From assembly GCA_964551595.1 (NCBI GenBank), contig CAZKCU010000002.1, positions 3,081 to 67,080 on the forward strand: 64,000 nucleotides of DNA. The letters run 5' to 3'. The stretch is from an uncultured Candidatus Saccharibacteria bacterium (GTDB lineage: Bacteria > Patescibacteriota > Minisyncoccia > Minisyncoccales > CAZKCU01). The notes below the pieces were generated by a model that saw only the letters and a list, made by a program, of their open reading frames with translations, was not told the DNA's origin and did not search any database. Made by a program: the position numbers and the translations under genes. Of the stretch, positions 3,592-60,007 are shown piece by piece (within the stretch, counting starts at the first letter, position 1; each line of letters begins with the position of its first letter).

Positions 3592-3637
3592 TTTAAAGAA
3601 TTTATTATTCGTATAAATTCGTAATTCGTAGGAAGTT

Positions 3638-5806: not shown

Positions 5807-5819
5807 AATAATATAATAT

Positions 5820-5908
5820 CCTACGAATTACGAATATCTACAAATCTACGAATAAAATGCATTTTTTAAAAAAATTCGTATATTCGTATTAATTAGTAAT
5901 TCGTAGGG
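5820..5908. repeat. AT-rich imperfect palindrome built from TACGAAT/ATTCGTA heptamers
   Basis: Left arm CCTACGAATTACGAATATCTACAAATCTACGAAT. Right arm ATTCGTATATTCGTATTAATTAGTAATTCGTAGG. Confidence 0.75.
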
Positions 5909-8904: not shown

Positions 8905-8914
8905 GTGAAAAAAT

Positions 8915-9337
8915 ATGTCAGCATTCAATGTTTTCAAAAGAAAAAAACCAGAGAAGAAAAAGATAGAAAAAAAGGAGGTTAAAAAGACCCCCGAAGTTAA
9001 AGGGAGGCCGTCTGAAAAAATGCAAAAAGCTGAATTACCAGTAAAAAAAGGCTTTAATGTTGCCTATCGCACTTTAAAAACGCCCCACATTACAGAAAAA
9101 GCGGGAGATTTGGCTAAAAAAAATCAATATGTTTTTAAAATTTGGCCAGGGGCAAATAAAACTGAAATAAAAAAAGCGATTCAAGATATTTATGGAGTAG
9201 ATGTTTTAGATATAAGAATTATTAAGATTTCGAGAAAACCCAGAAGATTGGGAAGGCAAAGAGGTTGGAGAGAAGGATATAAAAAGGCTATTATAAAAAT
9301 AAAAGAGGGGCAAAAGATGGAAATATTGCCAAGGTAA
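8915..9337 (+). CDS. rplW: 50S ribosomal protein L23 with Lys-rich N-terminal extension
   Basis: The C-terminal ~95 aa are L23-like (LKTPHITEKA...YVFKI...ANKTEIKKAIQDIYGV). About 45 aa of basic extension precede them. Confidence 0.93.
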   Translation: MSAFNVFKRKKPEKKKIEKKEVKKTPEVKGRPSEKMQKAELPVKKGFNVAYRTLKTPHITEKAGDLAKKNQYVFKIWPGANKTEIKKAIQDIYGVDVLDIRIIKISRKPRRLGRQRGWREGYKKAIIKIKEGQKMEILPR

Positions 9338-9349
9338 AAACTAATTTCT

Positions 9350-10135
9350 ATGAAATCTCCAAAATTACTAACAAAAAAAGAACCGGAAAAAAAGCTGCTA
9401 AAGTTTATAAAGAAGAAAGCAGGAAGGGCTCGTTCGGGCCGGATAACTGTTCGTCATCGGGGGAAAGGAGCAAAAAGACTTTATAGAATCATTGATTTCG
9501 GACAGGAAAAACTCGGTCTCCAGGCTAAAGTTGTTGCTTTAGAATACGACCCTTACAGAACCAGTTTCATTGCTCTTTTGGGATACCAGGATGGAGAAAA
9601 AAGATACATTTTAGCCCCCCAAAATTTAAAGATTGGGGATAAAATTATTATTTCAGAAAAAGCTGAAATCCGGCCGGGGAATCGAAGGAAACTAAAAAAT
9701 ATTCCAGTAGGAACTCAGCTCTATAATATTGAGATTGAGCCTGGCAAAGGAGGGAGATTGGTCAGGGGAGCAGGAACTGCTGCAAGAATCCTGGCTCAGG
9801 AAGGAAAGTTCGTCCATTTGGAAATGCCTTCTTCAGAAATTAGGCGGATTTCTCAAGAATGTTTTGCCTCAATTGGGATGGTTTCCCGACCCGAGCATAA
9901 ATTTACTACTCTTTCAAAGGCAGGCAGAGCTCGTCATATGAGACGGAGGCCAACTGTTCGAGGAACAGCTATGGTTCCTGCTGACCATCCTCATGGAGGA
10001 GGTGAAGGTAGAGCCCCAATTGGATTAAAACACCCAAAGACTCCCTGGGGAAAACCAGCTCTAGGAAAAAAAACAAGAAAAAAAAAGTGGACGGATAAAT
10101 ACATTATTCAAAGAAGACGTAAGAAAAAGAAATAA
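9350..10135 (+). CDS. rplB: 50S ribosomal protein L2
   Basis: [16 protein letters not shown]...[11 protein letters not shown]. Confidence 0.97.
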
Positions 10136-10137
10136 CT

Positions 10138-10458
10138 ATGGCAAGGTCACTCAAAAAAGGTCCATATGTGTCAGAAAAACTTTTAGAAAAGATTAAGAAA
10201 TTAAAACCAGGCACAAAGGAAATTATAAAAACTTGGTGCCGGGCTTGTGTCATTACTCCAGAAATGATTGGTTTAACTTTTGGCGTCCATAATGGAAAAG
10301 AACACATCCCTGTTTATGTGACTGAAGATATGGTTGGTCACCGACTTGGGGAATTTGCTCTGACGACTAAATTTTCAAGGCATGGCGGAAGAATGCAGAG
10401 GGAATTAGAGCAAAAAACAACTGAAAAGGAAGTAGAGAAACTTAAAGAATCTGAGTAA
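10138..10458 (+). CDS. rpsS: 30S ribosomal protein S19
   Basis: SLKKGPYV...[27 protein letters not shown]. Confidence 0.97.
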
Positions 10459-10514
10459 AGGAAACAGCTATCATAATTCTTATTATTAATGCTAAACACA
10501 ATCTTTTTAATAAT

Positions 10515-11012
10515 ATGTCAGTAATTGCTAAATTAAAATATTTACGGATTGCCCCTAGAAAAGTTCGCTTAGTCGCTAATCTCATTCTAGGAAAATCAAC
10601 TAAGGAAGCTCAGAGTATTTTAGATTTTACTGTAAAAAAAGCGGCTCAGCCCCTTTTAAAACTCTTAAAATCTGCCCTTTCTAACGCTAAACATAATTTC
10701 CAGTTATTAGATGAATCAAATCTTTATATCTCTAAAATTATAGTTGAGGAGGGGCCAAAATTAAAAAGATGGAGGGCTCGGGCCCGGGGAACAGTTGCCT
10801 CAATTCAAAAAAAGACTTCTCATATAACAATAATTCTTGATGAAATTTCAAAAAAACCCAAAAAAGTAAAAAAGGTTAGAAGGGTTGAAAAAGCTAAAAA
10901 AGTGAAAAGAATTCCCCGGCTGAAAAAACCAAAACTAAAAGCTGAGATGGAAATATCCAAACCAAAAATTGAAAGGGGAGTAAAAAGAATATTTAGACGC
11001 AAGGCTTTCTGA
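10515..11012 (+). CDS. rplV: 50S ribosomal protein L22 with Lys-rich C-terminal extension
   Basis: L22-like core (LRIAPRKVRLVANLI.GKS..EA..IL.F) followed by a KKPKKVKKVRR tail. Confidence 0.95.
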   Translation: MSVIAKLKYLRIAPRKVRLVANLILGKSTKEAQSILDFTVKKAAQPLLKLLKSALSNAKHNFQLLDESNLYISKIIVEEGPKLKRWRARARGTVASIQKKTSHITIILDEISKKPKKVKKVRRVEKAKKVKRIPRLKKPKLKAEMEISKPKIERGVKRIFRRKAF

Positions 11013-11015
11013 AAC

Positions 11016-11654
11016 ATGACTCATAAGGTTCACCCAAAAGCATTTAGAATAAAAGAAGCAACTGACTGGGATTCTCGTGGATTTTATAAAAAAAACCTTC
11101 CAGAATACCTGAAAGAAGATTTTGAAATTAGAAAATTTCTAAGAAAAAAATTAAAGAATATGGGGGTTGAAAAAATTGAAATTGAAAGGTTTCCAAAGAA
11201 ATTAAATATTATTATTTCGAGTGTTAGGCCGGGTCTTATCATTGGCAGAGGAGGAGGGGGAGTTGAAGCATTAAAAAAAGAATTAGAAAAAGTTTTGACT
11301 ACGTCCTCTTCGGAATTGAGAATTGAGATTAGAGAAATTAAAAATCCTTGGCTTTCCGCTGTCTTGGCTGCAGAGTGGATGGCTCAACAAATCGAGAAAA
11401 GAGTTCACTACCGAAGAGTATTAAAACAGGCTTTAGATAAAATTACAGCTAATAAGGCTGCCCAGGGAGCGAGAGTAGAGGTTGCTGGTAGATTAAACGG
11501 AGTAATGATTTCCCGGACTGAATGGTTAAAGAAAGGTCGTCTTCCTCGCCAAACTCTGAGAGCTGTGATAGATTATGGGAAAGCAAGAGCTTATTGCTCC
11601 TATGGAGTGGTGGGGGTTAAGGTCTGGATATATAAAGGAGAGAAGTTTGAATAA
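11016..11654 (+). CDS. rpsC: 30S ribosomal protein S3
   Basis: HKVHPKAFRI...KH-domain GRGGGGVEALKKEL. Confidence 0.97.
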   Translation: MTHKVHPKAFRIKEATDWDSRGFYKKNLPEYLKEDFEIRKFLRKKLKNMGVEKIEIERFPKKLNIIISSVRPGLIIGRGGGGVEALKKELEKVLTTSSSELRIEIREIKNPWLSAVLAAEWMAQQIEKRVHYRRVLKQALDKITANKAAQGARVEVAGRLNGVMISRTEWLKKGRLPRQTLRAVIDYGKARAYCSYGVVGVKVWIYKGEKFE

Positions 11655-11660
11655 AGAAGG

Positions 11661-11829
11661 ACATCCCAAATTGGAGAGGGGTCGGGAGAACCCTTCGGTT
11701 CTCCCGTATAGGAAAATATTAAAAACAGAGGGTTTTTAAAGAGCGAGCCCGAACCGAGCACATAATACTTTATGTTCTTGGGCCAGCCGTAAGGCTGGAT
11801 GAGGGCGAGCGACTAACTTGGTATTACCA
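11661..11829 (+). repeat. family A structured element, copy 1 (rpsC|rplP gap)
   Basis: 5' module GGAGAGGGGTCGGGAGAACCCTTCGGTTCTCCCGTATAGGAAAATATTAAAAAC. GNRA hairpin CCAGCC-GTAA-GGCTGG at 11783-11798. 3' module GAGGGCGAGCGACTAACTTGGTATTACCA-ATG. Confidence 0.85.
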
Positions 11830-12240
11830 ATGGCTATATTAATTCCACGAAAAGTTAAACATCGAAAATGGCAAAAAGGAAGAAGTAAAGGGAGAGAGAC
11901 TCGGGGGACTGAGCTGGTTTTTGGCAGTTATGGTTTAAAAAGTCTGCAAGAAGGGTGGATTAGTTCTCGCCAAATAGAAGCAGCTAGAAGAACTATCATT
12001 AGATATCTAAAAAAGGGAGGAAAACTCTGGATTAGAATTTTTCCTCAAAAACCAATAACTAGGAAAGGAACAGAAATTCCCATGGGGGGAGGAAAAGGGA
12101 GTGTAGATCATTATGTTTTTCCAATAAAGCCTGGTCGAATTATTTTTGAATTAGAAGGAATAAAAATAACCGAAGCTCAGGAATCTTTAGGGAAAGCAGC
12201 TGACAAATTATCGGTTAAAACAAGATTTATTAAAAGATAA
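11830..12240 (+). CDS. rplP: 50S ribosomal protein L16
   Basis: [18 protein letters not shown]. The start is moved from the TTG at 11818 to the ATG at 11830, because the TTG lies inside the repeat. Confidence 0.95.
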
Positions 12241-12260
12241 ATCATTAATTTTTGTGAAAA

Positions 12261-12360
12261 TAGGAACCTTTCGCTTCGCGAAAGAACCTTGATTTCATAA
12301 TTTTCGCTTCGTTTCCTTAATTGCGAAGCAATTACAGTAGAGCTAAGCGAGCGGTTCCTA
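12261..12360. repeat. palindromic element bounded by TAGGAACC/GGTTCCTA carrying the core box in reverse orientation
   Basis: TTTCGC-TTC-GCGAAA and TAATTGC-GAA-GCAATTA hairpins. The reverse complement of 12315-12360 matches the core box AACCnGTCGCT..CTGTAATTGCTTCGCAATTAAG seen in family A. Confidence 0.75.
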
Positions 12361-12367
12361 AATTTTT

Positions 12368-12544
12368 ATGAAAATAACAGAATTGAGTCAAAAGTCAAAA
12401 AATGAATTGCAGACTTTACTATCTGAAAAAAGAGAGAGATTGCGACAATTAAGATTTAACATATCTTCAGGCAAAGTTAAGAATGTCAGAGAAATTAGAA
12501 TAATAAAGAAAGATATCTCCAGAATATTAACAATATTAAAATAG
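12368..12544 (+). CDS. rpmC: 50S ribosomal protein L29 (58 aa; below ORF-track cutoff)
   Basis: Hand translation gives MKITELSQKSKNELQTLLSEKRERLRQLRFNISSGKVKNVREIRIIKKDISRILTILK. It sits in the expected slot between rplP and rpsQ. Confidence 0.9.
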   Translation: MKITELSQKSKNELQTLLSEKRERLRQLRFNISSGKVKNVREIRIIKKDISRILTILK

Positions 12545-12545
12545 A

Positions 12546-12682
12546 ACATCCCACATCGGAGAGGGGTCGGGAGAACCCTTCGGTTCTCCCGTATAGGAAA
12601 ATATTAAAAACCGAGGGTTTTTAAGAAGCGGTGTTAGTCGAGCGAAGCGAGACGTGCCGCGACCTAACTCGGTATTATCACT
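12546..12682 (+). repeat. family A structured element, copy 2 (short form; rpmC|rpsQ gap)
   Basis: Same 5' module as copy 1. A divergent middle section is followed by the 3' end CTAACTCGGTATTATCACT-ATG. Confidence 0.85.
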
Positions 12683-12916
12683 ATGGTAAAAAGAAAATTA
12701 CAAGGCACAATCATTTCAACTAAAATGAAAAAGACGGTAGTAGTTAAAACAGAGCGAATAAAAGAACACCCGAGATACAAAAAGAGATACAAAGTTCACA
12801 AAAAATATAAAGCCCATGATGAAAGCGAAAAGTGCAAAGTAGGAGATAAGGTTATTATTGAAGAATGTAGGCCAATATCAAAAGATAAGAGATGGAGAGT
12901 AATAAAGAAAGCTTGA
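12683..12916 (+). CDS. rpsQ: 30S ribosomal protein S17
   Basis: KLQGTIISTKMKKTVVVKTERIKEHPRYKK...HDE...GD.V.I.ECRPISK.K.W. Confidence 0.96.
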   Translation: MVKRKLQGTIISTKMKKTVVVKTERIKEHPRYKKRYKVHKKYKAHDESEKCKVGDKVIIEECRPISKDKRWRVIKKA

Positions 12917-13130
12917 ACCACATCGGAGAGGGGTCGGGAGAACCCTTCGGTTCTCCCGTATAGGAAAATATTAAAAACCGAGGGTTTTACAAACCAGTCG
13001 TCGCTCCGCGCCTCCTTGTAATTGCTTCGCAATTAAGAAAGAGCGAGCCCGAAGCGAGGCTGAGATTGTCGAAGCCGAGCGCCAGCCGTAAGGCTGGATG
13101 AGGGCGAGCGACTAACTTGGTATTACCACT
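12917..13130 (+). repeat. family A structured element, copy 3 (long form; rpsQ|rplN gap)
   Basis: Contains the 5' module, the core box (12992-13038), the CCAGCC-GTAA-GGCTGG hairpin (13082-13097) and the 3' module ending ...GGTATTACCACT-ATG. Confidence 0.9.
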
Positions 13131-13502
13131 ATGATACAGCCCCGAACAATGTTAAAAGTTGTCGACAATACCGGAGCTAGAGTCATCCAGTGTTTTCGAG
13201 TTTTGGGTGGTAGCCGCCGGCGTTATGCTCGAATTGGAGATATTATAGTTGCCACCGTAAAAGAAGCTGAACCAAGGAGGATTGTTAAAAAACACGATGT
13301 AGTTAGGGCAGTAATTATTCGGCAAAAAAAAGCCTACAGGAGAAATGATGGTTCTTATATTAGATTTGATGAGCCAGCCGCCGTAATTCTTGAAGGGAAA
13401 ACAAAAGATCCAAAAGGAGGAAGAATTTCCGGACCCGTACCAAAGGAATTAAAAGAAAAGGGATTTGAAAAGATTGCCGCCTTGGCCGAAGAACTAGTAT
13501 AA
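13131..13502 (+). CDS. rplN: 50S ribosomal protein L14
   Basis: [24 protein letters not shown]. Confidence 0.97.
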
Positions 13503-13645
13503 CGCTCGGCAACAAGTTTTAAAGTACCGATAGTTCAAATCCCAGCGAGATTTGACTATCTACATTCTCGTCCCGTCGCTCCGACTTCGTCGGAGACCGT
13601 GTCGACGGGACTGCGAAAGTTACTTTAAAACTTGTTGCCTCGCTT
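13503..13645. repeat. family B palindromic element, copy 1
   Basis: About 20-bp outer stem GGCAACAAGTTTTAAAGTAC/GTTACTTTAAAACTTGTTGCC. Inner hairpins are GATAGTTCAAATC..GATTTGACTATC, GTCCCGTCG..CGACGGGAC and CTCCGAC-TTC-GTCGGAG. It appears near-identical by eye, with scattered substitutions, to 21777-21920. Confidence 0.85.
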
Positions 13646-13707
13646 AAAAATTATTTGTAATTCCGAGCAAAGCGAGGAATCAAGGTTCTGGCGAAGTCAG
13701 GTTCTTA

Positions 13708-13734
13708 TATTCGTAAATATTCGTAATTCGTAGG
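13708..13734 (+). repeat. ATTCGTA heptamer repeat immediately upstream of rplX start
   Basis: TATTCGTAAATATTCGTAATTCGTAGG-ATA-ATG. The same ATTCGTAATTCGTAGG box precedes fusA (3610-3632) and tuf (5893-5908). Confidence 0.7.
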
Positions 13735-13737
13735 ATA

Positions 13738-14043
13738 ATGAAAATAAAAAAAGGCGACCAGGTTCTTATAATTTCCGGTAAAGACAAAGGTAGAAAAAGT
13801 AAGGTTTTAGAGGTTCTTCCTAAAGAGCAGAGAGTTGTAATAGAAGGCGTTAACATAAGAAAAAAACATGTCAGACCGAAAAAGACGGGGGAAAAGGGTC
13901 AAATTATAGAAACACCCGGTTCCGTCCATATTTCTAATCTAAAGCTTATTTGTTTGAAATGCGGAAAAGCAACGAGGGTGGAATATAAAATTGTAGAAAA
14001 GAAAAAATATCGAATTTGTAAAAAATGTGGGCAAGAAATATGA
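13738..14043 (+). CDS. rplX: 50S ribosomal protein L24 with C-terminal Cys4 zinc ribbon
   Basis: KOW motif IKKGDQVLIISGKDKG; C-terminal CLKCG...CKKCG. Confidence 0.95.
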   Translation: MKIKKGDQVLIISGKDKGRKSKVLEVLPKEQRVVIEGVNIRKKHVRPKKTGEKGQIIETPGSVHISNLKLICLKCGKATRVEYKIVEKKKYRICKKCGQEI

Positions 14044-14600
14044 TTACCAAATTACCAGAAAAATATAAAAAAGAGGTTATACCTCAGATGAAAGAAAAAT
14101 TCGGGTATACTAACAAGATGGCTGTTCCAAAGATTGAAAAAGTTGTAGTCAATACTGGCTTTGGTAGATTGATTGCCGATAAAACTTCAGAAGAACAGAA
14201 GAAAATTTTTGAAGCTGTTTTAGAAGATTTTAGCTTAATTACCGGGCAAAGACCTGTTTTAACGAGAGCAAAAAAGTCAATTTCTGGCTTTAAAATTCGT
14301 CAGGGCCTTCCAATTGGGGCTCGGGTTACATTGAGGGGAAAAAGAATGTTTGATTTTTTAGAAAGATTAATTAATATTGCTCTTCCCAGATCTCGTGATT
14401 TTCAGGGGATTGACTCAAAATCATTTGATAAAAAGGGAAATTTAACTATTGCTATTCGAGAGCACATTACCTTTCCCGAAATTTTAATAGAAAAGGCAAA
14501 AAATATTTTTGGCCTTGAAATTACCGTGGTAACTACGGCAAAAAAAAGAGAAGAAGGGATAGAATTATTAAAGTTACTCGGCTTTCCAATTAAGGCTTAA
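14040..14600 (+). CDS. rplE: 50S ribosomal protein L5
   Basis: L5-like sequence ([12 protein letters not shown]...[23 protein letters not shown]). The start is set at an ATGA overlap with the rplX stop instead of the upstream ATG at 14025. Confidence 0.95.
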
Positions 14601-14604
14601 AAGT

Positions 14605-14790
14605 ATGGCGACGAAAGCTAAAATAGTAAAATCTAAAAAGAAACCTAAATTTAGTTCGAGAATAGTTCGGCGTTGCTTTAGATGTGGGAGAAAAAGAGGA
14701 TATATGAGAAAATTTGGATTATGCCGGATATGTTTTAGAGAGATGGCAAACCAAGGGCTGATACCTGGAGTAAAGAAATCGTCATGGTAA
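14605..14790 (+). CDS. rpsN: 30S ribosomal protein S14 type Z (zinc-binding, 61 aa)
   Basis: [23 protein letters not shown]. Confidence 0.96.
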
Positions 14791-14805
14791 AAATCCAAAA
14801 TAAAT

Positions 14806-15222
14806 ATGACTGATCCTATCACTGATATGCTCAACCGAATAAGAAATGCTCAAGCTGTTTTGAAAGAAACGGTTGATATTCCTTTTTCTAATTTAAAATA
14901 TGAAATTTCTATAATTTTAGAAAAGGAAAATTTTATTGAGAAGGTCGAAAAAAAAGGAAGGAAAACTAAAAAATTCATTAAAATTAGCTTAAAATACTTG
15001 CCTTCTTCCCGAGTTTTGCAAGATAAAACAAAAGTGGCAGCAATTTCTGGTTTAAAAAGAATTTCCAAACCAGGCCAAAGGATTTACCTTTCAGCTAAAA
15101 AAATGCGGAGAGTAAGAGGGGGTTATGGAATAGCAATAATCTCAACACCAAAAGGATTGATGACTGATAAAAAAGCGAGGAGGCAGAAATTGGGAGGGGA
15201 AGTTTTATGTGAAGTCTGGTAA
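14806..15222 (+). CDS. rpsH: 30S ribosomal protein S8
   Basis: MTDPITDMLNRIRNA...GGEVLCEVW. Confidence 0.97.
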   Translation: MTDPITDMLNRIRNAQAVLKETVDIPFSNLKYEISIILEKENFIEKVEKKGRKTKKFIKISLKYLPSSRVLQDKTKVAAISGLKRISKPGQRIYLSAKKMRRVRGGYGIAIISTPKGLMTDKKARRQKLGGEVLCEVW

Positions 15223-15789: not shown

Positions 15790-15850
15790 TAGGAACCATT
15801 CGCTTCGCTCACTGTAATTTATTTCGTAATTAATGCTTCGCAAATTAAAG
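15790..15850 (+). repeat. degenerate core-box copy in the rplF|rplR gap
   Basis: TAGGAACCATTCGCTTCGCTCACTGTAATTTATTTCGTAATTAATGCTTCGCAAATTAAAG, to be compared with the reverse complement of 12315-12360. Confidence 0.6.
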
Positions 15851-18491: not shown

Positions 18492-18526
18492 CCCTACGAA
18501 TTACGAATTATTACGAATATACGAAT
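18492..18526 (-). repeat. TACGAAT heptamer repeat (reverse orientation of ATTCGTA box) upstream of adk
   Basis: CCCTACGAATTACGAATTATTACGAATATACGAAT. Confidence 0.7.
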
Positions 18527-19200: not shown

Positions 19201-19964
19201 TTTCAATCAAAACTCCAGAAGAAATTACCATAATGGCTGAGGGTGGTAAAATCCTGGCAAAAATTATGGCTGAGATAGGAAGAAAAGTTAAGGCGGGAAT
19301 TAAAACTCGCGAATTAGACAGGCTTGCTGAAAGCCTGATTTTAAAATCTGGAGGAAAGTGTTCGTTTAAAGGACATGAGGGATATCCTTTTTGTCTTTGT
19401 ACTTCAATAAATGAAGAGATAGTTCATGCTTTGCCTTCTGACAGAATCTTGAAAGGAGAAGATATAATTTCCCTTGACCTGGGAATTCTTTACAAGGGCT
19501 TTCATACTGATATGGCAGTTACCCTCCCAGTTACGCGACCCAGCCGCGTAGAGAAAATTGATCCAGAAACTCAAAGATTAATTCGGGTAACAAAAAAATC
19601 CTTGAAAAGAGGAATTAAAAAAGTTCACCCGGGAAATACTTTTGGAGATATTGGAAATACCATTCAAAGATATGTTGAGGGCCAGGGATTTAATGTTGTT
19701 AGAGACCTTTGCGGTCATGGGATTGGTAGAGAATTACATGAAGACCCCCAAATTTTAAATTATGGGAAAAGACATACCGGTCCAGAAATTAAAGAAGGAA
19801 TGGTTTTTTGTATTGAACCAATGGTAACAATGGGGGATTGGAGAATAAAAAAAACCAAAGATGGTTTTGGTTACCAGACAGAGGACGGGTCTCTGTCAGC
19901 TCACTTTGAGCATATGATGGCGGTAACCCAAAATGGATGTCAGATATTGACAAATTTAAAGTAA
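19197..19964 (+). CDS. map: type I methionine aminopeptidase
   Basis: GHGIGRELHE, FCIEPM, SAHFEHMMAVT; ATGA overlap with adk. Confidence 0.96.
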   Translation: MISIKTPEEITIMAEGGKILAKIMAEIGRKVKAGIKTRELDRLAESLILKSGGKCSFKGHEGYPFCLCTSINEEIVHALPSDRILKGEDIISLDLGILYKGFHTDMAVTLPVTRPSRVEKIDPETQRLIRVTKKSLKRGIKKVHPGNTFGDIGNTIQRYVEGQGFNVVRDLCGHGIGRELHEDPQILNYGKRHTGPEIKEGMVFCIEPMVTMGDWRIKKTKDGFGYQTEDGSLSAHFEHMMAVTQNGCQILTNLK

Positions 19965-21776: not shown

Positions 21777-21920
21777 CGCTCGGCAACGAAGTTTCAAAGT
21801 ACTGATAGTTCAAATCCCAGCGAGATTTGACTATCTACATTCTCGTCCCGTCGCTCCGACTTCGTCGGAGACCGTGCCGACGGGACTGCGAAAGTTACTT
21901 TAAAACTTATTGCCTCGCTT
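21777..21920. repeat. family B palindromic element, copy 2
   Basis: Near-identical by eye to 13503-13645, with the same inner hairpins and a slightly decayed outer stem. Confidence 0.85.
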
Positions 21921-21939
21921 TATTAATTTTTTAAACACC

Positions 21940-25122: not shown

Positions 25123-25163
25123 TCAATGTTTGTTTTTAGATAAAGAGAATGATAAAATAAGCA

Positions 25164-25207
25164 AACCGGTCGCTTCACTCCCCTGTAATTATTCCATAAT
25201 TAAAGGA
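25164..25207 (+). repeat. degenerate core-box copy upstream of ftsA-like gene
   Basis: AAACCGGTCGCTTCACTCCCCTGTAATTATTCCATAATTAAAGG. Confidence 0.55.
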
Positions 25208-25208
25208 G

Positions 25209-26411
25209 ATGATAAATTTCTCGTTATTCAAAAAAGACAAAAGGAAAATATTTTTAGGATTGGATATCGGCACAGAAGCAGTAAAAGCTATAATTTTTTC
25301 TCTCTCAGAAAAAAAAGATAAAAAGATTACTATTTTGGGAAACTCTCTTTCCTATTTTGACAGCTACGGGGTATTTGACAGTCAGGATTTTGAAGCTGAT
25401 GTTGTTAAAAAAACTATTTCAAAAACGATTAATGAGGCTAAAAGTCAAATTAATCAAAAGCCTAACCGGACATTACTTGAATTGCCAGCTAACATTTTAA
25501 AAGGAAGAATTGTTTTTCAGTCTTTTAAAAGAAAAAATCCTCAATCGATTATTGATAAAAAAGAGAAAGAAGTGATTTATCAGAAGATTTTAAGCAAAGC
25601 TCAAAATGAAATTTCCCAGATTTTTGCTACAGAATCCGGCATTTTGCCAAAAGATATTCACATTATTAACCTAAAAATCTTGGAAATAAAAATTGATGGA
25701 TATGTAGTACCAGCTATTCAAGGGTATAATGGAAAAAATTTAGATTTTAGGATTTTAGCTATTTTTTTACCGAAATATTATCTAGAGAATATCAAAAAAA
25801 TTATTCAGGGTTTAATCTCTGAGGAATTAGAAATTCTTAACCTTGCACAAGCCCTACCTTATTTCTTTAGAAGGAAAGTGGTTGATGGAATTTTTCTTGA
25901 TGTTGGAGGAAATTTGACCCAGATTTTTTTAGTAAACAATGGAAAACTAAATAATGTCGATGAATTCGAAATAGGAGGAAAAACTTTTTCCCAAGCTCTT
26001 TCTCAAAGTTTGGGAATAGGAATTTCAGAGGCAAGAGTTTTAAAAGAAAATTATTCTAAAGGAGAATTATCAGAAGAAGTGAGAGAAAGAGTTAGAGAGA
26101 TTTTTTCTCAATCTTTAGGAGATTGGTTCAAAAATCTAAAACTAAAATTAAAAACCCAAAGGATTTTTGACAGAGAAAGGAAATCCGGAGGTGTACTACT
26201 TCCATCAACTTTTTTTCTTTTCGGGGGAGGAAGTCAACTGCCTGAAATTCAGGAAATTTTAGAAGAGGGGAATTGGGAAAGTTTTTCTTTTTTTACTCCC
26301 CCAAAAGTAAAATTTATTTATCCAAAGGACTTCAGAAATATTGAAGATATGACAAAAAAATTAAATAGCCCTCAAGACGTCCCTGCCTTATTACTTTGTT
26401 ATGCCTGCTAA
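25209..26411 (+). CDS. ftsA: actin-like ATPase, FtsA/PilM family
   Basis: FLGLDIGTEAVKAI, FLDVGGNLTQIF, FGGGSQLPEI; SD AAAGGAG. Confidence 0.75.
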   Translation: MINFSLFKKDKRKIFLGLDIGTEAVKAIIFSLSEKKDKKITILGNSLSYFDSYGVFDSQDFEADVVKKTISKTINEAKSQINQKPNRTLLELPANILKGRIVFQSFKRKNPQSIIDKKEKEVIYQKILSKAQNEISQIFATESGILPKDIHIINLKILEIKIDGYVVPAIQGYNGKNLDFRILAIFLPKYYLENIKKIIQGLISEELEILNLAQALPYFFRRKVVDGIFLDVGGNLTQIFLVNNGKLNNVDEFEIGGKTFSQALSQSLGIGISEARVLKENYSKGELSEEVRERVREIFSQSLGDWFKNLKLKLKTQRIFDRERKSGGVLLPSTFFLFGGGSQLPEIQEILEEGNWESFSFFTPPKVKFIYPKDFRNIEDMTKKLNSPQDVPALLLCYAC

Positions 26412-28207: not shown

Positions 28208-28218
28208 TTTTTATAAAT

Positions 28219-28424
28219 AACCCATCTCGGAGAGGGGTCGGGGGAACCCTTCGGTTCCCCCGTGTAGGAAAATATTAAAAACAGAAGGTTTTACAAACCA
28301 GTCGTCGCTCCGCGCCTCCTTGTAATTGCTTCGCAATTAAGAAAGAGCGAGCCCGAAGCGAGGCGAAGCCGAGTGCTGGAGTAAAGCTCCAGAGAGGGCG
28401 AGCGACTAAATTTGAACTACCATT
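28219..28424 (+). repeat. family A structured element, copy 4 (rpmJ|rpsM gap)
   Basis: The 5' hairpin carries a compensatory change (GGGGGAACC-CTTC-GGTTCCCCC, 28240-28261). The distal hairpin is CTGGAG-TAAAG-CTCCAG (28376-28392). The 3' end is GAGGGCGAGCGACTAAATTTGAACTACCATT-ATG. Confidence 0.9.
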
Positions 28425-28814
28425 ATGCCGAGAATAGCTGGTGTAAACATACCAGAACAAAAACAAATAGAAATTGCCTTAACCTATATTTTTGGAATAG
28501 GACTGTCTTTGAGTAGAAAAATTTTAACTACAGCCGGTATTGAAAAGCAGAGACTGGCATCTGAGTTAACTCCAGAAGAAATAAACCTGCTTAAAGAAAT
28601 TATTGAAAAAAAATATAAAATTGAGGGGAATCTTAAAAGAGAGATAATGATGAATATTAGAAGATTAAAAAATATATCTTCTTTTCGAGGAATTCGTCAT
28701 ATTAAAGGGTTACCGGTAAGAGGCCAAAGAACCCGAACAAATACTCGGACTGTGCGAGGAAATGTCAGAAAAACAGTAGGATCTGGCAGAAAAGCAGCCC
28801 CAGCCCCGAAGTAA
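28425..28814 (+). CDS. rpsM: 30S ribosomal protein S13
   Basis: [22 protein letters not shown]. Confidence 0.97.
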
Positions 28815-34827: not shown

Positions 34828-36093
34828 ATGGCTGAAAAATTTATAATTGAAGGTAAAAAACCTCTTGAAGGAGAGATTGAGGTGAGGGGCTCTAAAAATG
34901 CGGCCGGAGCCCTTTTGGCTGCCACTTTACTTACTGATGAAGAATGCCTAATTGATAATCTTCCTCGAATTTCTGATATTTTTAATCTGCTGGAAATTTT
35001 GAAAGAAATGAGAGCAAATGTAGAGTGGATTAATGAAAGGAAGGTTAGAATTAAAGCCGGAGGGAAAGTTGACCCGGAAAAAATAGATTTTGAGAAGATT
35101 TCTAAAGCTCGAATTTCTGTACTTTTAATTGGCGCTCTTTTGCCAAGATTTAAAGAATTTAAGATTTCCAGACCGGGGGGAGATAGAATTGGATTAAGAC
35201 CAATTAGTACTCATTTACAAGCCCTCAAACAATTAGGAGTTGAAATTAAAGAAACTGGTGATTTTTACTATTTTAAATCAACCGGTCTTCGCGGAAAAGA
35301 AATCGTTTTACCGGAATTTAGCGTTACCGCAACTGAAAATTTAATGATGGCAGCTACCTTATCCGAAGGCGAAACCATAATAAAAGGAGCAGCCTGCGAG
35401 CCTCATGTTCAGGATTTGTCTAAAATGTTAAATAGTATGGGTGGAAATATAAAAGGAATAGGGACTCATACCTTGAGAATCCAAGGAGCGAAAAAACTAA
35501 AAGGGACAGTTCACAAAACTATTCCTGATTACCTTGAAGCCGGCACATTTATTATTATGGGAGCTAGCTGTGGCAAAAAACTTAAAGTAGATAACATAGT
35601 ATCTGGACATTTAGATCTTTTTTTAGCCAAATTGAAAGAAGTAGGAGTTGAATTCAGAAGAATAGATGACTCAATTGAAGTTTTGGGGGGAGGAGATTTA
35701 AAGTCAGCTCGAGTTCAAGCTCTTCCTTATCCTGGTTTCCCAACTGACTTATTGCCGATTATTGTTCCTCTTTTGACCCAGGCAAAAGGCAAAAGTTTAA
35801 TCCATGACCCCTTATATCCGAATAGATTTAGTTATGTGGATGAATTAAGGAAAATGGGGGCTGATATTGAAATAGTTGACCCACATCGAGCTTTTGTTTT
35901 CGGCAAAACTCCTCTGAAAGGATTTAGAATTGAATCATGGGATATAAGAGCTGGAGCGGCTCTGGTTTTAGCTGGGCTTTTAGCTCGAGGCAAGACTATA
36001 ATTGAGAATGTGGAGCAAATTGATAGAGGATATGAGAGAATAGAGGAGAGACTCCAAAAGTTAGGAGCAAACATAAAACGAGTAAGTGTTTAA
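34828..36093 (+). CDS. murA: UDP-N-acetylglucosamine 1-carboxyvinyltransferase
   Basis: G.I.V.GSKNAAGALLAATLL; full-length EPSP-synthase-fold protein of MurA type. Confidence 0.95.
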   Translation: MAEKFIIEGKKPLEGEIEVRGSKNAAGALLAATLLTDEECLIDNLPRISDIFNLLEILKEMRANVEWINERKVRIKAGGKVDPEKIDFEKISKARISVLLIGALLPRFKEFKISRPGGDRIGLRPISTHLQALKQLGVEIKETGDFYYFKSTGLRGKEIVLPEFSVTATENLMMAATLSEGETIIKGAACEPHVQDLSKMLNSMGGNIKGIGTHTLRIQGAKKLKGTVHKTIPDYLEAGTFIIMGASCGKKLKVDNIVSGHLDLFLAKLKEVGVEFRRIDDSIEVLGGGDLKSARVQALPYPGFPTDLLPIIVPLLTQAKGKSLIHDPLYPNRFSYVDELRKMGADIEIVDPHRAFVFGKTPLKGFRIESWDIRAGAALVLAGLLARGKTIIENVEQIDRGYERIEERLQKLGANIKRVSV

Positions 36094-36101
36094 AAATAAA
36101 C

Positions 36102-36310
36102 AACCCAAATCGGAGAGGGGTCGGGAGAACCCTTCGGTTCTCCCGTGTAGGAAAAGATTAAAAACAGAGGGTTTTACAAACCAGTCGTCGCTCCGCGCCT
36201 CCTTGTAATTGCTTCGCAATTAAGAAAGAGCAAGCCCGAAGCGAGGCCAAAGACCGAGCGCTGGAGCGAAAGCTCCAGAGAGGGCGAGCGACTAACTTGG
36301 TATTACCACT
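36102..36310 (+). repeat. family A structured element, copy 5 (murA|mreB gap)
   Basis: Long form with the 5' module, the core box, the CTGGAGC-GAAA-GCTCCAG hairpin (36261-36278) and the 3' module ...GGTATTACCACT-ATG. Confidence 0.9.
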
Positions 36311-37318
36311 ATGTTCGTCACAAAAATCGGCATCGATCTTGGAACCTGTAATTCATTAGTTTTTATCCCTGGTAAAGGGGTGGTTTTAGAAGAACCTTCA
36401 GTGGTAGCGGTGACTCTTTCCGAAAATAAAATTTTAGCAGTGGGAGCTGAAGCTAAAGAGATGACTGGCCGGACTCCTGATACTATCAGAGTTTACCGCC
36501 CCCTAAAAGATGGAGTTATTGCTGAATACCGAATTACTGAGGCCATGTTGAGATATTTTATTACCAAGACAAGTGGTAAGTTCCGGCTTTTCAAGCCTGA
36601 GTTAATAATTGGAGTACCGGCCGGTATTACCTCCACTGAAAGAAGGGCGGTAATTGAAGCTGGTCTTGCTGCTGGAGCTAAGGCTGTCTATGTGGCAAAA
36701 GAGCCAATTTTAGCAGCCATTGGGGCCGGTATTCCTATTAATTCTTGTTCCGGACATATAATTATTGACATTGGCGGTGGGACATCCGAGGTGGCGGTAA
36801 TTTCTCTTGGAGGAATAGTTGCCTCTAATTCAGTAAGGACTGCCGGTGACAAAATGGATTCGGCAATCGCAGATTATATTAAGAAAAAATATAATTTAGC
36901 CATAGGTTCCCAGACTGCCGAGGAAATAAAAATAAAAATCGGCACCGCCTCAACCGAGGAAGAGGAAAGATATTTGGAAATTCGGGGGAGGGATTTAATT
37001 TTAGGGTTACCACGAACGATTAAAATTTCTTCTAATGAGGTCTGCGAAGCAGTTTCTGATGTCTTGACTGAAATTATTCAGGTAGTTAAACAAGTTCTAA
37101 GAGACACTCCGCCTGAGTTATCTGCTGATATTATGGACAAAGGAATGATTCTTTCAGGAGGTGGAGCCTTGCTTAGAAATATTGATGAGATGGTAGCCCA
37201 GGCAACCGGGATACCCTGTTTTATAGCTGAGGAACCTTTGTTATGCGTGGCTAAGGGAACAGGAATCGTCTTGGAAAACTTAGATGTATATAAAAAGAGC
37301 ATAATGTCAAAAAAATAA
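36311..37318 (+). CDS. mreB: rod-shape protein MreB (paralog 1)
   Basis: IGIDLGTCNSLV, EPSVVA, IIDIGGGTSEVAVISLGG. Confidence 0.93.
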   Translation: MFVTKIGIDLGTCNSLVFIPGKGVVLEEPSVVAVTLSENKILAVGAEAKEMTGRTPDTIRVYRPLKDGVIAEYRITEAMLRYFITKTSGKFRLFKPELIIGVPAGITSTERRAVIEAGLAAGAKAVYVAKEPILAAIGAGIPINSCSGHIIIDIGGGTSEVAVISLGGIVASNSVRTAGDKMDSAIADYIKKKYNLAIGSQTAEEIKIKIGTASTEEEERYLEIRGRDLILGLPRTIKISSNEVCEAVSDVLTEIIQVVKQVLRDTPPELSADIMDKGMILSGGGALLRNIDEMVAQATGIPCFIAEEPLLCVAKGTGIVLENLDVYKKSIMSKK

Positions 37319-55128: not shown

Positions 55129-55781
55129 AAAACATCGCTAAAATTATCGACCACACAAATATAAAACACACTGCGACTGTTAAAGACATCAAAAAAACTT
55201 GTCAGGAAGCCAAAAAATACGGTTTTCGGGGAGTTTGTGTTAATCCAGAATGGGTAAAATTAGTTAAAAAAGAGCTAAAAGGAACTAACATTAAAGTTGT
55301 TTGCTTAATAGATCCGCCAATAGGAGGCAGTTCCCACCAAAAGAGGATGGAGCAATGCCTGAAAGCAAAACAAGATGGAGCTGATAATTTGGATGTAGTA
55401 ATGAAAATTAATGTGGCAAAACAAGGAAAGTGGGATGAGGTTTTAAAAGATTTAAAACAAATCTGCGAAATTGCACCAACCAAAGTAATTATTGGTTCGG
55501 GTTACTTGACTGATGAAGAAATAAAAAAAGCCTCAGAAATTGTCAAGAAAGCTGGTGCTATTTGTGTTAAAACATCAACTGAAAAAGGGCCCTTAGAACA
55601 CCGAGAATTAAAGGAAAAATTCTATCATTTAAAATTGATGAAAAAAGCAGCTCCAGGACTTTTAATTAAAGCTGCTGGAAAAATTAGAAATTTATCAGAT
55701 GCCAAAGAAGCTATCAAAGCCGGCGCAGATATTATTGGAACAAGTTCGGGAGTAGAAATAATAAACGAAACTAAAAATTGA
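55125..55781 (+). CDS. deoC: deoxyribose-phosphate aldolase
   Basis: IDHTNIK, GVCVNP, and the Schiff-base lysine context VKTSTE. There is an ATGA overlap with tmk. Confidence 0.88.
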   Translation: MKNIAKIIDHTNIKHTATVKDIKKTCQEAKKYGFRGVCVNPEWVKLVKKELKGTNIKVVCLIDPPIGGSSHQKRMEQCLKAKQDGADNLDVVMKINVAKQGKWDEVLKDLKQICEIAPTKVIIGSGYLTDEEIKKASEIVKKAGAICVKTSTEKGPLEHRELKEKFYHLKLMKKAAPGLLIKAAGKIRNLSDAKEAIKAGADIIGTSSGVEIINETKN

Positions 55782-55825
55782 CAGAGGACGGGCCTCTGTC
55801 AAACTTACAGAGGACGGGTCTCTGT
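55780..55825. repeat. two tandem short hairpins, family F
   Basis: GACAGAGG-ACGGG-CCTCTGTC at 55780-55800 and ACAGAG-GACGGGT-CTCTGT at 55807-55825. The second is 19/19 identical to a segment inside map (19878-19896). Confidence 0.8.
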
Positions 55826-57901: not shown

Positions 57902-59839
57902 TTATTTTAGGAATTTTTCAACTAATTTTTCTGCCTCTTTATAATTTTTTACCCAATGAATCTTTTTATTCCGTTTGAACCAGGTCATTTGGCGCTTGGC
58001 ATAATTTTGAAGTTCTATTAAGGAATTTTCAATCATTTCTTTGTCAGTAATTTTATTTTGCAAATATTGGGCTGCTATTCGATAATGTATTCCAAATTCT
58101 TCAATTCTCTGCCAAGAAATGCCAAGTTTCCTCAATTTTAGAATTTCTTTTAAAAATCCCTGTTTTAACCATTTAAAAAATCTTTTTTCTATTAATTTTT
58201 TAAGTTCTTCTTTATCCTTTTTTATTCCAATCATTAAAACAGGGTAGGGAAGTGATTTTTTCTTTAAAATAGGTACTGGTCTTTTTGTTTTCAATATAAT
58301 TTCAATTGCCCGAATTAATCTTCTGGGATTTTTCTTCTCAATTGTCCTTGCTCTTTTGGGATCAAGTTTTTTTAATTGGACGAAAAGTTCTTTTGCTGAT
58401 TTTTTTGCCAAATTTTTCCTTAATTTCCAATCAGGAGGAACTTCCGGAATTAAAATGCCATCGAGCACAGCTTGAATATAAAATCCTGTTCCACCGCATA
58501 AAAAAGGCACCTTCTCCTTTTTAAAAATTTTACTTATTGCCTCAAGTGTCAATTTCCGATATTGAGTCACGGTAAATCTTCTCTTTGGACTGACTACATC
58601 CAGGAGATGATGGGTGATACTCAGCATCTCTTTTTTAGTTACCTTTCCGGTCCCAATATTCATTCCTTTATAAATCTGACGGGAGTCAGCCGAAATAATC
58701 TCGCCGCTGAATTTTTTAGCAAGTTTTATTGCCAGCTCTGATTTACCCGAAGCTGTTGGTCCTAAAATAACAATTAATTTTTTATCCCTTAATTGCGAAG
58801 CACTTATAGGGAGGAAAGCGACTGGTTCCTTTTTTTCAATGATTTCTCTTAAAATTTTTTCTCTCCTCTTTTTTTCTAGTAAAGGAACATTATCTTCTAA
58901 TTGAGAAGCAGCTGTTCCTTCCCGAGGAGAATATTTAGCAATATAGGCCCAGTCAAATTTAATTTCTTTGAATAATTTAACTGTATTTTGAAATTGTTTT
59001 TTCGTTTCTCCAGGAAAACCAACGATGACATCGGTTGATAATTTAATTTCCGGTATTTTTTTTCTAATTTTTCTTACCAAATTTTTATATTCTTTTAGGG
59101 TATAATTTCGGTTCATTTTCTTTAAAATTTTGTCGTTGCCAGATTGGACAGGTAAATTAAAATATTTTCCGAATTTTTCGCAACTAGATAGGACCTGAAT
59201 TAATTCATCTGAAAAATTACTGGGATGAGGAGAGGTAAAAAGAATTTTAAAATCTCCAGGAATATCATTTACCATTTTCAAAAGTTTTGCAAAATTAATT
59301 AAGGAATCTGAAGGGGAGTGGTAGTCATTTACATTTTGGCCCAAAAGCCAAATTTCTTTAAATCCTTTCTTTGCCAAATCTTTAACTTCCTTTAAAACTT
59401 CTTGATGATTACGACAAACCAAAGGACCACGCGTGTAAGGAACAACGCAATAAGAACAGAAATTATTACAGCCATTAGAAATTGGCACAAAAGCTAAAGA
59501 TTTACTTTTGCATTTTGGGGGAATATCAAAATAATTTCTAAAGGACCAAATTGAGTCAAAAATTTTTCTAAATTCCTTTCTATCTTTTTTTAAAATACAG
59601 CCCGTCAGAATAGTTTTAAGTCTTGAATTTTTTTCTTTTAGTTTTTTGAATTTTGGCAAAAGACCATAAACTCTGTCTACCGCCGATTGCCTGACTGAAC
59701 ACATATTAACCACAATTAAATCAGCTTCAGAAATATCAGAAGCTGATTTGTATCCTGTATTCTCTAAAACTGTGGCAATTCTTTCCGAATCTGATTTATT
59801 CATTTGGCATCCGAAAGTAATGATATAATATCTTGGCAT
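57902..59839 (-). CDS. fusion protein: MiaB-like radical-SAM methylthiotransferase (no TRAM domain) + MiaA tRNA dimethylallyltransferase
   Basis: The N-terminal part has YIITFGCQMN and the radical-SAM motif CNNFCSYCVVP. The C-terminal part has ILGPTASGKS...ADSRQIYKGMNIGTGK. The start is trimmed to MPRYY (59839). Confidence 0.85.
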   Translation of the reverse strand: MPRYYIITFGCQMNKSDSERIATVLENTGYKSASDISEADLIVVNMCSVRQSAVDRVYGLLPKFKKLKEKNSRLKTILTGCILKKDRKEFRKIFDSIWSFRNYFDIPPKCKSKSLAFVPISNGCNNFCSYCVVPYTRGPLVCRNHQEVLKEVKDLAKKGFKEIWLLGQNVNDYHSPSDSLINFAKLLKMVNDIPGDFKILFTSPHPSNFSDELIQVLSSCEKFGKYFNLPVQSGNDKILKKMNRNYTLKEYKNLVRKIRKKIPEIKLSTDVIVGFPGETKKQFQNTVKLFKEIKFDWAYIAKYSPREGTAASQLEDNVPLLEKKRREKILREIIEKKEPVAFLPISASQLRDKKLIVILGPTASGKSELAIKLAKKFSGEIISADSRQIYKGMNIGTGKVTKKEMLSITHHLLDVVSPKRRFTVTQYRKLTLEAISKIFKKEKVPFLCGGTGFYIQAVLDGILIPEVPPDWKLRKNLAKKSAKELFVQLKKLDPKRARTIEKKNPRRLIRAIEIILKTKRPVPILKKKSLPYPVLMIGIKKDKEELKKLIEKRFFKWLKQGFLKEILKLRKLGISWQRIEEFGIHYRIAAQYLQNKITDKEMIENSLIELQNYAKRQMTWFKRNKKIHWVKNYKEAEKLVEKFLK

Positions 59840-59886: not shown

Positions 59887-60007
59887 TTAAAATCTTATCT
59901 TTTAAGGTTATTCTAAAACACATTTTCCTTTCTTGTATACTGATACATTTTGCTTCGATTGTATTTATAACTGTTTGCGAATTTGCCTACTATTCACAGT
60001 AATATAA

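Follow-up and report, generated by a model that had tools for sequence, protein, structure and literature searches.

Introduction

Cyanobacterial genomes reportedly contain very small dispersed repeats of 21–27 nucleotides (nt) that are found as nested insertions. RAYT tyrosine transposases mobilise the repetitive extragenic palindromic (REP) elements, which are palindromes tagged with GTAG or CGTC and in some cases intragenic (Di Nocera et al. 2013, PMC3733652). The Rickettsia palindromic elements (RPEs), as they are described in PMC10969869 after Ogata et al. 2000, are non-autonomous elements of ~100–150 bp that lie between genes and also, with unusual frequency, in frame inside conserved genes. 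Here we describe a repeat unit of 42 nt, called the box, in a 64,000-nt stretch of contig CAZKCU010000002.1 (the window), where one copy makes up most of the linker of a protein in which the tRNA-modification enzymes MiaB and MiaA are fused, and we argue that the arrival of this repeat between two genes probably produced the fusion.

In comparison to the RPEs, as far as the description of them goes, the box is likewise palindromic and is found in host-dependent bacteria with reduced genomes, and the same repeat was found between genes and in frame in unrelated conserved genes, where a short peptide is tolerated. It is set apart from the RPE families (~100–150 bp, Rickettsia), which are known here by description, by its unit length and its hosts. 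By the same description, it also differs in having two short hairpins with a GC-TTC-GC top, in forming tandem arrays of exactly 42 nt, in being spread over very distant Patescibacteria classes, and in joining two genes where RPEs interrupt single genes. The REP elements resemble the box as stem-loops of 20–40 nt that are mainly intergenic, occur as singles, dimers and arrays, are sometimes intragenic, and probably act as single-strand hairpins. However, neither a GTAG nor a CGTC tag is present in the box consensus CAAACCAGTCGCTTCGCTCCTTGTAATTGCTTCGCAATTAAG or in its complement, no RAYT gene was found nearby, each unit has two different hairpins, and phylum-level lineages share the box core, whereas each REP family is confined to a species. 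The cyanobacterial repeats are said to be tiny hairpin units that insert into one another or into other hairpins and occasionally lie within genes, as the box does, but they differ in host group and sequence and from the two-hairpin, 42-nt architecture of the box. No description of such repeats in the Candidate Phyla Radiation (CPR) was found in the literature searched.

MiaA makes i6A37, and MiaB then converts i6A37 to ms2i6A37. No paper on MiaB–MiaA fusions was found in the literature searched, and the database entries are named MiaA or MiaB only. The closest counterparts of the window protein are natural fusions of Patescibacteria, which have the same order of UPF0004, radical-SAM and IPPT domains, mostly lack the TRAM domain, and have their breakpoint after ...REKILxxI. 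These fusions are older and either have linkers of 19–36 residues unrelated to the box or keep TRAM, whereas the window fusion has a separate origin within a clade of split genes and has a repeat as its linker.

Results

A TRAM-less MiaB joined to a complete MiaA

The fused gene (Table 1) is one open frame of 645 residues on the minus strand at 57902–59839, and it was found that the window sequence has zero stop codons or frameshifts within it. An earlier account made from the letters of the window (the sequence-only reading) had proposed a single 645-residue open reading frame (ORF) that combines a MiaB without TRAM and a complete MiaA, and the Pfam and NCBIfam searches and the open frame bear this out. 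The true start is MPRYYIITFGCQMN, which coincides with the point where the alignment to 55 fused homologs begins; an upstream ATG at 59923 and a downstream start at MNKSD, chosen by some gene callers, are less likely. The Pfam search placed UPF0004 at residues 3–94, Radical_SAM at 118–289 and IPPT at 388–623, with zero matches to TRAM (PF01938) at E ≤ 0.01. Evaluated with NCBIfam models, the N-terminal half scored 356.8 bits against the MiaB equivalog TIGR01574, which is only narrowly above the cutoff of 355.3 bits because the MiaB C terminus is missing, 382 bits against the subfamily model TIGR00089 (cutoff 251), and less than the cutoffs of the MtaB and RimO models. The C-terminal half scored 247.2 bits against the MiaA equivalog TIGR00174 (cutoff 148.65) and covered profile positions 1–285 of 288.

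In the alignment of 56 sequences, C47, C81 and the CxxxCxxC residues C124, C128 and C131 are invariant, and C11 was found in the N-terminal FGCQMN motif of the window protein. The P-loop (G360–S367) and D385-S386-R387-Q388 are conserved in the MiaA half, with G360, G365, K366, D385, S386, R387 and Q388 invariant. The fused protein, of ~74 kDa, would be expected to make i6A37 with its MiaA half and then ms2i6A37 with its radical-SAM half, and the older natural fusions of the phylum presumably do likewise. A separate MiaA made by internal restart was ruled out: none of ATG, GTG or TTG occurs in frame behind a Shine–Dalgarno sequence after the box, and the old ATG has become AGG.

An AlphaFold2 model computed from the 56-sequence alignment was confident for both halves (mean pLDDT, the predicted local distance difference test, 82.7; pTM, the predicted template modelling score, 0.52), and the pLDDT fell below 50 solely at the Fe-S Cys loop (residues 124–137) and at residues 337–349, the box peptide. 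The pTM of 0.52 indicates that the two domains, as modelled, have no fixed orientation to each other.

The linker is a copy of the box

The sequence-only reading had given the junction as a 44-mer encoding 15 residues. This 44-mer matches 58786–58829 on the minus strand exactly and codes for E338–D352, so position and residues stand, although the unit proper is 42 nt and not 44. A 27-nt block of the junction matches copies inside longer repeats of the window, the family-A elements, at 13011, 28315 and 36198 (24 of 27 positions in each), and the 9-mer AACCAGTCG upstream of this block is likewise common to the junction and the family-A copies; in shuffled sequence, no matches of such quality are expected. 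The junction copy also aligns over its full length with the copy at 12316–12357, and a profile made from 36 unique units, of which the junction copy itself was one, gave it E = 7.7e-12. The claim that the linker is a copy of an intergenic core box is thus upheld by block matches, end-to-end alignment and profile.

The junction copy has diverged furthest of all copies. It shows 5 changes relative to the 42-nt consensus, and its length differs by 6 nt from that of the family-A subtype. Its two hairpins have both lost strength and are the weakest among the 22 aligned 42-nt units, and the minimum free energy of its DNA is −3.3 kcal/mol for the sense strand (z = −1.25) and −2.0 kcal/mol for the complementary strand (z = +0.27). 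This decay fits a sequence that now evolves as coding sequence.

A multi-copy repeat could in principle mis-join contigs in a short-read metagenome assembly. However, both flanks of the junction are colinear with sister loci at 91% identity, and the identical fused protein was recovered on seven contigs of independently made assemblies; the two of the seven that were read have the identical junction and SNPs (single-nucleotide polymorphisms) of their own, 1 and 4 silent ones relative to the window gene. One sample, JGI 3300028837, contains both the fused lineage and a split lineage. A chimera of this kind, or a chance similarity in the face of zero expected matches and the profile value above, has negligible probability, and the fused allele is real and not an artefact of assembly. 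The frame across the junction, which the sequence-only reading had treated as needing confirmation, is intact in the window, and the junction is the same in both contigs read.

The nearest relatives have separate miaB and miaA genes

The 90%-identity cluster of the window protein was found to consist of the box-containing fused sequence and of members of 325–355 residues that end exactly at the box start, with no box-less fused member. Gene order is conserved in three sister contigs (L004, L005 and L006; comparison sequences carry L numbers), which show 91.0% nt identity to the window across 1898 nt, but in these there are two genes, which overlap by 16 nt or 4 nt (...AAAATGGAC...). The sister miaB ends in ...GAA AAA AAA TGG ACA AAA AAT TAA or in ...AAA TGA, with the start of miaA (ATG GAC or ATG AAC) embedded. 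Relative to the sisters, the window has the same flanks and 40 additional nt, the 42-nt unit replacing the "AT" of the miaA ATG, and R351-D352 of the window protein (AGG GAT) align with M1-D2 of the relatives' MiaA (ATG GAC or ATG GAT).

In a second search, with the sister MiaA as the query, the 18 closest matches to the window MiaA domain (78–88% identity) were all standalone proteins of 295–308 residues. A neighbour-joining tree of 81 MiaA-domain taxa (100 bootstraps, distances computed in numpy) placed the window in a 16-member clade (93% support) in which the other 15 of 15 are standalone; its sister group has 83% support. This clade is nested in a group of ~40 standalone sequences, and fused forms are basal in the enclosing 46-member clade (100% support). 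For the MiaB half, the ranking by identity was 90% for L004 (standalone), 84% for L023, 76% for L020 and 75% for the fused protein P0002. L021 is a member of the window's own 4-member clade, L023 and L022 belong to the other subclade, and all three have one homologous split junction, consisting of ...REIIEN(Q/R)NSLKMN* (asterisk, stop codon), a spacer of 33 or 89 nt, and ATGGATAAAAAATTA. Therefore, the ancestor of the clade had two genes, and the window fusion is secondary. The sequence-only reading had left it undecided whether the repeat bridged two genes or entered an existing linker; these split relatives support bridging better, and later insertion is retained only within the two-step alternative considered below.

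At the split junction of the relatives there is an AT-rich palindrome of another kind (AAATTCATT...AATGAATTT), which lies between copies of an 8-nt direct repeat, ATTGAGAA; L022 has an additional nested palindrome (Table 1). The miaB/miaA junction looks like a hotspot of small hairpin insertions, one of which may have caused an earlier fission.

Older fusions and the loss of TRAM

A search of 5.8 billion proteins yielded >100 full-length MiaB–MiaA fusions in Patescibacteria (Nealsonbacteria, Pacebacteria and others). The majority are without TRAM, and a minority of 700–740 residues keep it. The linker between the invariant anchors R326 and G360 is hypervariable: it has 19–36 residues in TRAM-less fusions and 35 in the window protein, compared to 86–101 in fusions with TRAM. 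The window linker sequence was found in 0 of the 55 other aligned fusions. The nearest fused relatives (67–72% identity) have an unrelated insert of ~17 residues at this point; when the DNA is compared, the flanks can be aligned to the window and the inserts cannot, and the insert of ~51 nt (QQYAEKPNDLKPGVSPL) has no DNA relatedness to the box and is not repeated in their loci. The protein search gave no fused protein between 72% and 100% identity to the window protein.

The organisation of miaB and miaA, which the sequence-only reading had proposed comparing among related genomes, is therefore separate or overlapping without a box in the nearest relatives, and fused with other linkers in distant ones. 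That reading had also named fused orthologs with linkers unlike the repeat as grounds for its rejection; such linkers are what was found, yet they show that the box insertion is specific to one lineage. Within the phylum, fusions of this architecture are frequent and of long standing, and the window case is a recent and independent re-creation of it with a micro-repeat at the junction. On the sequences compared, the box did not create MiaB–MiaA fusion as such, which is not unique to the window.

One could suppose instead that a box-containing fusion is ancestral, that it was kept in the window, and that the sisters were split by excision or deletion of the box. Fused MiaB–MiaA proteins are indeed widespread and basal to the clade, the TRAM-less MiaB of the split relatives hints at a fused past, and deletion of the 40-nt difference would also give the split state. 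However, this history requires independent loss of the box in many lineages, whereas the homologous junction of L021 and L023/L022 (ENxNSLKMN*, spacer and ATG) has no box remnant and cannot be the product of convergence. The absence of the box from the 55 aligned homologs and the recent expansion of the repeats in the window lineage also speak against it, and we regard it as extremely improbable in comparison to a joining of two separate genes by the box.

TRAM-less MiaB is a standalone protein in L004, L006 and L023, and therefore the loss of TRAM is older than the window fusion and independent of it. The same observation rules out, as the cause of this fusion, the replacement of TRAM by MiaA that the sequence-only reading had suggested, although MiaA may, as a general property, provide the tRNA binding for a MiaB that lacks TRAM, whether in cis or in trans. 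In L020 (CP179888.1, a complete 0.64-Mb genome of 639,534 bp; 8175–10900), MiaB has TRAM, and an unrelated gene of 138 residues lies on the opposite strand between miaB and miaA. Therefore, the loss of TRAM and the adjacency of miaB and miaA have changed more than once in the group.

Architecture and distribution of the box

The unit reads (C/G)(A/G)AACC, hairpin 1 (6 bp, loop TTC), TG, hairpin 2 (TAATTGC-TTC-GCAATTA) and AG, with the 42-nt consensus given above and variants of 34–48 nt, and its boundaries coincide in every context. The window contains seven copies, the junction and six others. A pattern scan of metagenomes found the unit in 55 stretches with unrelated flanks, and a scan of genomes detected it in further Parcubacteria/Paceibacterota as well as two genomes of Saccharibacteria; including the window there were 72 copies, which reduce to 36 unique units, 22 of them exactly 42 nt long. 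The scan of genome contigs, made with a 19-mer, gave 13 matches, about the number expected by chance, with 8 in unrelated bacteria. Core matches in L014, L036 and L047 were rejected as chance; their 5′ half is missing and they sit in an unrelated gene.

The box occurs solo, nested and in tandem, and in both orientations relative to genes. Head-to-tail arrays with an exact 42-nt period are present in L056, L057 and L061, and the loop of another hairpin frequently has a copy nested within it (for example, L017, L059, L068 and L071). Arrays in the trmD–rpiB spacer vary in copy number among related contigs (2–3 or more units), like a variable-number tandem repeat.

The hairpin 1 stems seen included AGTCGC/GCTCCT, GGCAAC/GTTGCC, GATAAC/GTTATC, GGC/GCC and GC/GC, with two-sided change in 5 of the 6 pairs. 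The covariation score of hairpin 1 was 0.199, compared to 0.105 for shuffled alignments; none of 500 shuffles reached the observed value, and all slid registers scored lower. A compensatory GC→AT change was found in hairpin 2 of the copy at 25162–25201. In this part of the window (25162–25215) and in L029 near 3169, the 3′ end of the box (TTAAG) continues straight into an AAGGAG Shine–Dalgarno sequence and a start codon, and box insertions may contribute to, or tightly adjoin, ribosome-binding sites. The Rfam search of the whole window at the gathering threshold found tRNAs only, and a search of 11500–13300 at a permissive threshold gave only sub-threshold chance matches.

The covariation of hairpin 1, the conservation of the hairpin 2 sequence across phyla, and the many copies in 5′ leaders, some adjoining a Shine–Dalgarno sequence and start codon, would be consistent with a host-functional RNA or DNA motif (protein binding, a processing or pausing hairpin, a leader) that was selected at the junction, for example for interdomain pausing or mRNA cleavage. 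Such a motif is harder to reconcile with copies in both orientations, in five unrelated proteins, in tandem arrays and in other hairpins, with orthologous sites in close relatives that have no copy, with the lack of an Rfam match, and with a junction copy whose hairpins are the weakest of the 22. We therefore consider a selected motif highly improbable and a mobile-like selfish repeat the better description of the box.

In-frame copies in other genes

The unit is 14 codons long and can be read through in four of its six frames, and therefore the box can persist in coding sequence as a 14-residue surface insert. In-frame copies were found within Pfam domains of five further genes, encoding SecA, TsaD, GrpE, UvrD and archease (Table 1). 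A copy near DnaA (L072) was excluded from the coding copies; it lies upstream of DnaA_N.

Recent spread

The contig L082 has 91–97% nt identity to the window in five ribosomal-protein genes. The successive S3–L16–L29–S17–L14 spacers measure 177, 127, 138 and 214 nt in the window, where they consist of family-A and box repeat, in contrast to 48, 30, 11 and 5 nt in L082. All four spacer elements are absent from L082, and therefore the expansion is recent. Overall, there were seven box copies in the 64-kb window and none in ~110 kb of the relatives' loci. Presence/absence polymorphism at orthologous sites was thus seen at the miaB/miaA junction (relative to L004–L006) and in the four ribosomal-operon spacers (relative to L082), and family-A copies are known both with and without the box.

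The 10 ORFs that flank the arrays are housekeeping genes (trmD, rpiB, ATP synthase and others) or have no Pfam match. The leading guess, by analogy with REP/RAYT and IS200/IS605, is that the box may be mobilised in trans by a single-strand DNA enzyme that recognises hairpins. The copy in the GrpE gene has CAAGAAT repeats on both flanks.

Other repeats of the window and its relatives

The family-A elements are 150–230 nt long, GC-rich and structured, with a hairpin GGGAGAACC-CTTC-GGTTCTCCC. They fill spacers of the S10/spc ribosomal-protein operon, which in L082 are without them, and also lie ahead of two other ORFs. Metagenome contigs L031, L034, L043, L060 and L069 have similar elements, in which the box occupies the same internal position. 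A conserved 3′ module, GAGCGACTAACTTGGTATTACCA(ct)ATG, adjoins start codons with no obvious Shine–Dalgarno sequence at normal spacing, and in relatives it lies upstream of nusG and one more gene; it may be a translation-initiation leader motif.

A further repeat family (TATTCGTA...ATTCGTAATTCGTAGG) is intergenic and occurs in both orientations at 3606–3633, 5813–5908, 13702–13746 and 18492–18526 of the window. Long GC-rich inverted repeats lie within a pair of 143-nt direct repeats with 94% identity, at 13514–13656 (downstream of L14) and 21789–21931. The short hairpin repeat ACAGAGGACGGGCCTCTGT is present three times, at 19872–19896, 55775–55799 and 55801–55825, the last two in tandem directly upstream of gatB. 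In L004, an ORF of 402 residues with NUMOD3 and DUF559 matches (homing-endonuclease-like) lies between gatB and deoC at 13955–15163; it is not in L006 and not in the window.

Table 1. Positions of the fused gene, the box copies and associated repeats. Positions are those of the window unless a contig or protein is named.
Feature	Position	Strand	Basis or remark
Fused miaB-miaA ORF, 645 residues	57902..59839	-	translation, Pfam, NCBIfam
MiaB-derived part, residues 1-337, UPF0004 and radical-SAM core without TRAM	58830..59839	-	Pfam, alignment, NCBIfam
Junction box unit, 42 nt, GGAACCAGTCGCTTTCCTCCCTATAAGTGCTTCGCAATTAAG, most of linker E338-D352	58788..58829	-	repeat alignment, profile, sister comparison
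MiaA-derived part, last base of codon R351 to K645	57902..58787	-	Pfam, alignment, NCBIfam, sister comparison
Box copy in L16-L29 spacer (43 nt), within ~97-nt composite missing from L082	12316..12357	-	end-to-end alignment, profile
Box copy, 48-nt subtype, in family-A element, S17-L14 spacer	12990..13037	+	block match, profile
Box copy, 48-nt subtype, in family-A element, upstream of ORF at 28425	28294..28341	+	block match, profile
Box copy, 48-nt subtype, in family-A element, upstream of ORF at 36311	36177..36224	+	block match, profile
Diverged box copy, hairpin 2 with a partial duplication nested in it, immediately before ATG 15833	15793..15843	+	profile
Diverged box copy, hairpin 2 TAATTAT-TCC-ATAATTA, 3′ end runs into AAGGAG and ATG	25162..25201	+	profile
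In-frame box copy, SecA	residues 184-197		DEAD domain
In-frame box copy, TsaD	residues 151-164		
In-frame box copy, archease	residues 60-73		
In-frame box copy, GrpE, ...KPASPVIASQLS	residues 105-118		frame same as window linker EPVAFLPISASQLR
In-frame box copy, UvrD/PcrA helicase	residues 98-111		
Tandem box arrays	L054 2779-2904; L061 1264-1410; L057 2992-3075; L056 3470-3595		
AT-rich palindrome at split miaB/miaA junction	L021 825-882; L023 1856-1910; L022 5890-6000		
Partial copy of split-junction palindrome	L004 1816-1848; L006 1867-1899		
Family-A elements	11652-11836; 12537-12687; 12904-13135; 28208-28429; 36091-36315		
3′ module GAGCGACTAACTTGGTATTACCA(ct)ATG	11807-11829; 13106-13128; 28400-28422; 36286-36308; L001 21344-21366; L006 17973-17995		

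Discussion

The comparisons make it likely that a small, mobile-like selfish repeat landed on the miaB stop and miaA start and thereby created a secondary, in-frame MiaB–box–MiaA fusion, and we infer from the alignments that the box would have caused the fusion in one step. The lineage would have started with a separate miaB, already TRAM-less, and a miaA translationally coupled to it. One unit would then have inserted where the stop and start overlap and taken the place of "AT" (or "T") in the miaA ATG, lengthening the sequence by a net 40 (or 41) nt, and as a consequence the miaB stop would have been put out of frame, the miaA ATG destroyed and the two frames joined, with the box peptide as a mere flexible tether of ~15 residues. 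When the unit was replaced in silico by "AT", a sister-like gene pair was obtained (...EKKWIKN*, compared to ...EKKWTKN* in L004, and MDKKLIVILG), and replacement by "T" gave the state expected once a spacer of the L021 type is lost.

Several observations weigh against this interpretation. All the sequences compared are metagenome assemblies. Support is weak at the deeper nodes of the tree, and the earlier course of fusion, fission and TRAM loss is hard to disentangle; L020, of the same 93% clade, has a TRAM-bearing MiaB and a gene interposed before miaA. Hairpin 2 was set by the search pattern, and its conservation across phyla is partly an effect of ascertainment. No transposase or RAYT-like gene was found beside copies or arrays, in a survey of the ORFs that flank the arrays. 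There are no terminal inverted repeats, the ends (C/G)(A/G)AACC and TTAAG not being mutually inverted as they would be in a miniature inverted-repeat transposable element, and no clean target-site duplication was seen at the miaB–miaA site. "Insertion" is therefore a term derived from comparison and not from scars of transposition.

A further point is that excising exactly 42 nt from the junction leaves a perfect in-frame fusion (...REIIEKKDKKLIVILG; ...EKKDKKLIVILG). This would be expected if a 1-nt (T) or 2-nt (AT) deletion had first fused the genes (...EKKDKKLIVILG) and the box had been inserted in frame later, in which case it marks the junction without having caused the fusion, and the intermediate allele would be GAAAAAAAGGATAAAAAATTA. 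Such a two-step history is favoured by the location of the junction within a slippage-prone homopolymer run of A, by the canonical unit length of 42 nt, by the other coding copies, which were inserted in frame into ORFs already present, and by the tolerance of fused homologs for linkers of 19–36 unrelated residues. However, it requires two events where one suffices, and no box-less fused allele was seen in the clade, either in the 90% cluster or in the protein search between 72% and 100% identity. We therefore judge the two-step history unlikely and retain the direct insertion of the box in the stop/start overlap as the preferred explanation.

Beyond this locus, we are inclined, by a modest balance of the evidence, to the view that Patescibacteria carry undescribed, phylum-wide, 42-nt, codon-compatible double-hairpin mobile repeats, which would remodel essential proteins (SecA, TsaD, GrpE, UvrD and archease), inflate operon spacers, and be able to create multidomain proteins in one step at stop/start overlaps. 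The 21-nt hairpin, which is almost the same in Parcubacteria and Saccharibacteria, would then imply a conserved trans-acting enzyme or horizontal spread, and it gives a motive to search for an enzyme that recognises the conserved hairpin. For the annotation of these genomes, the consequences are essential proteins with inserts of 14 residues and "intergenic" leaders of inflated length, and for protein evolution the copies are a natural library of linkers and inserts.

The RPE-like phenomenon described here is in the CPR, a very large and little-studied group, in tiny genomes where repeats are assumed to be scarce. The miaB–miaA locus is a sequence-resolved and dated case in which a selfish micro-repeat would have turned two coupled genes into a bifunctional enzyme, with both stages at hand, the "before" as split sisters of 91% identity (one from the same sample) and the "after" as the fused gene, and the MiaB–MiaA pair is a system for asking whether covalent tethering matters in consecutive tRNA-modification steps without TRAM.

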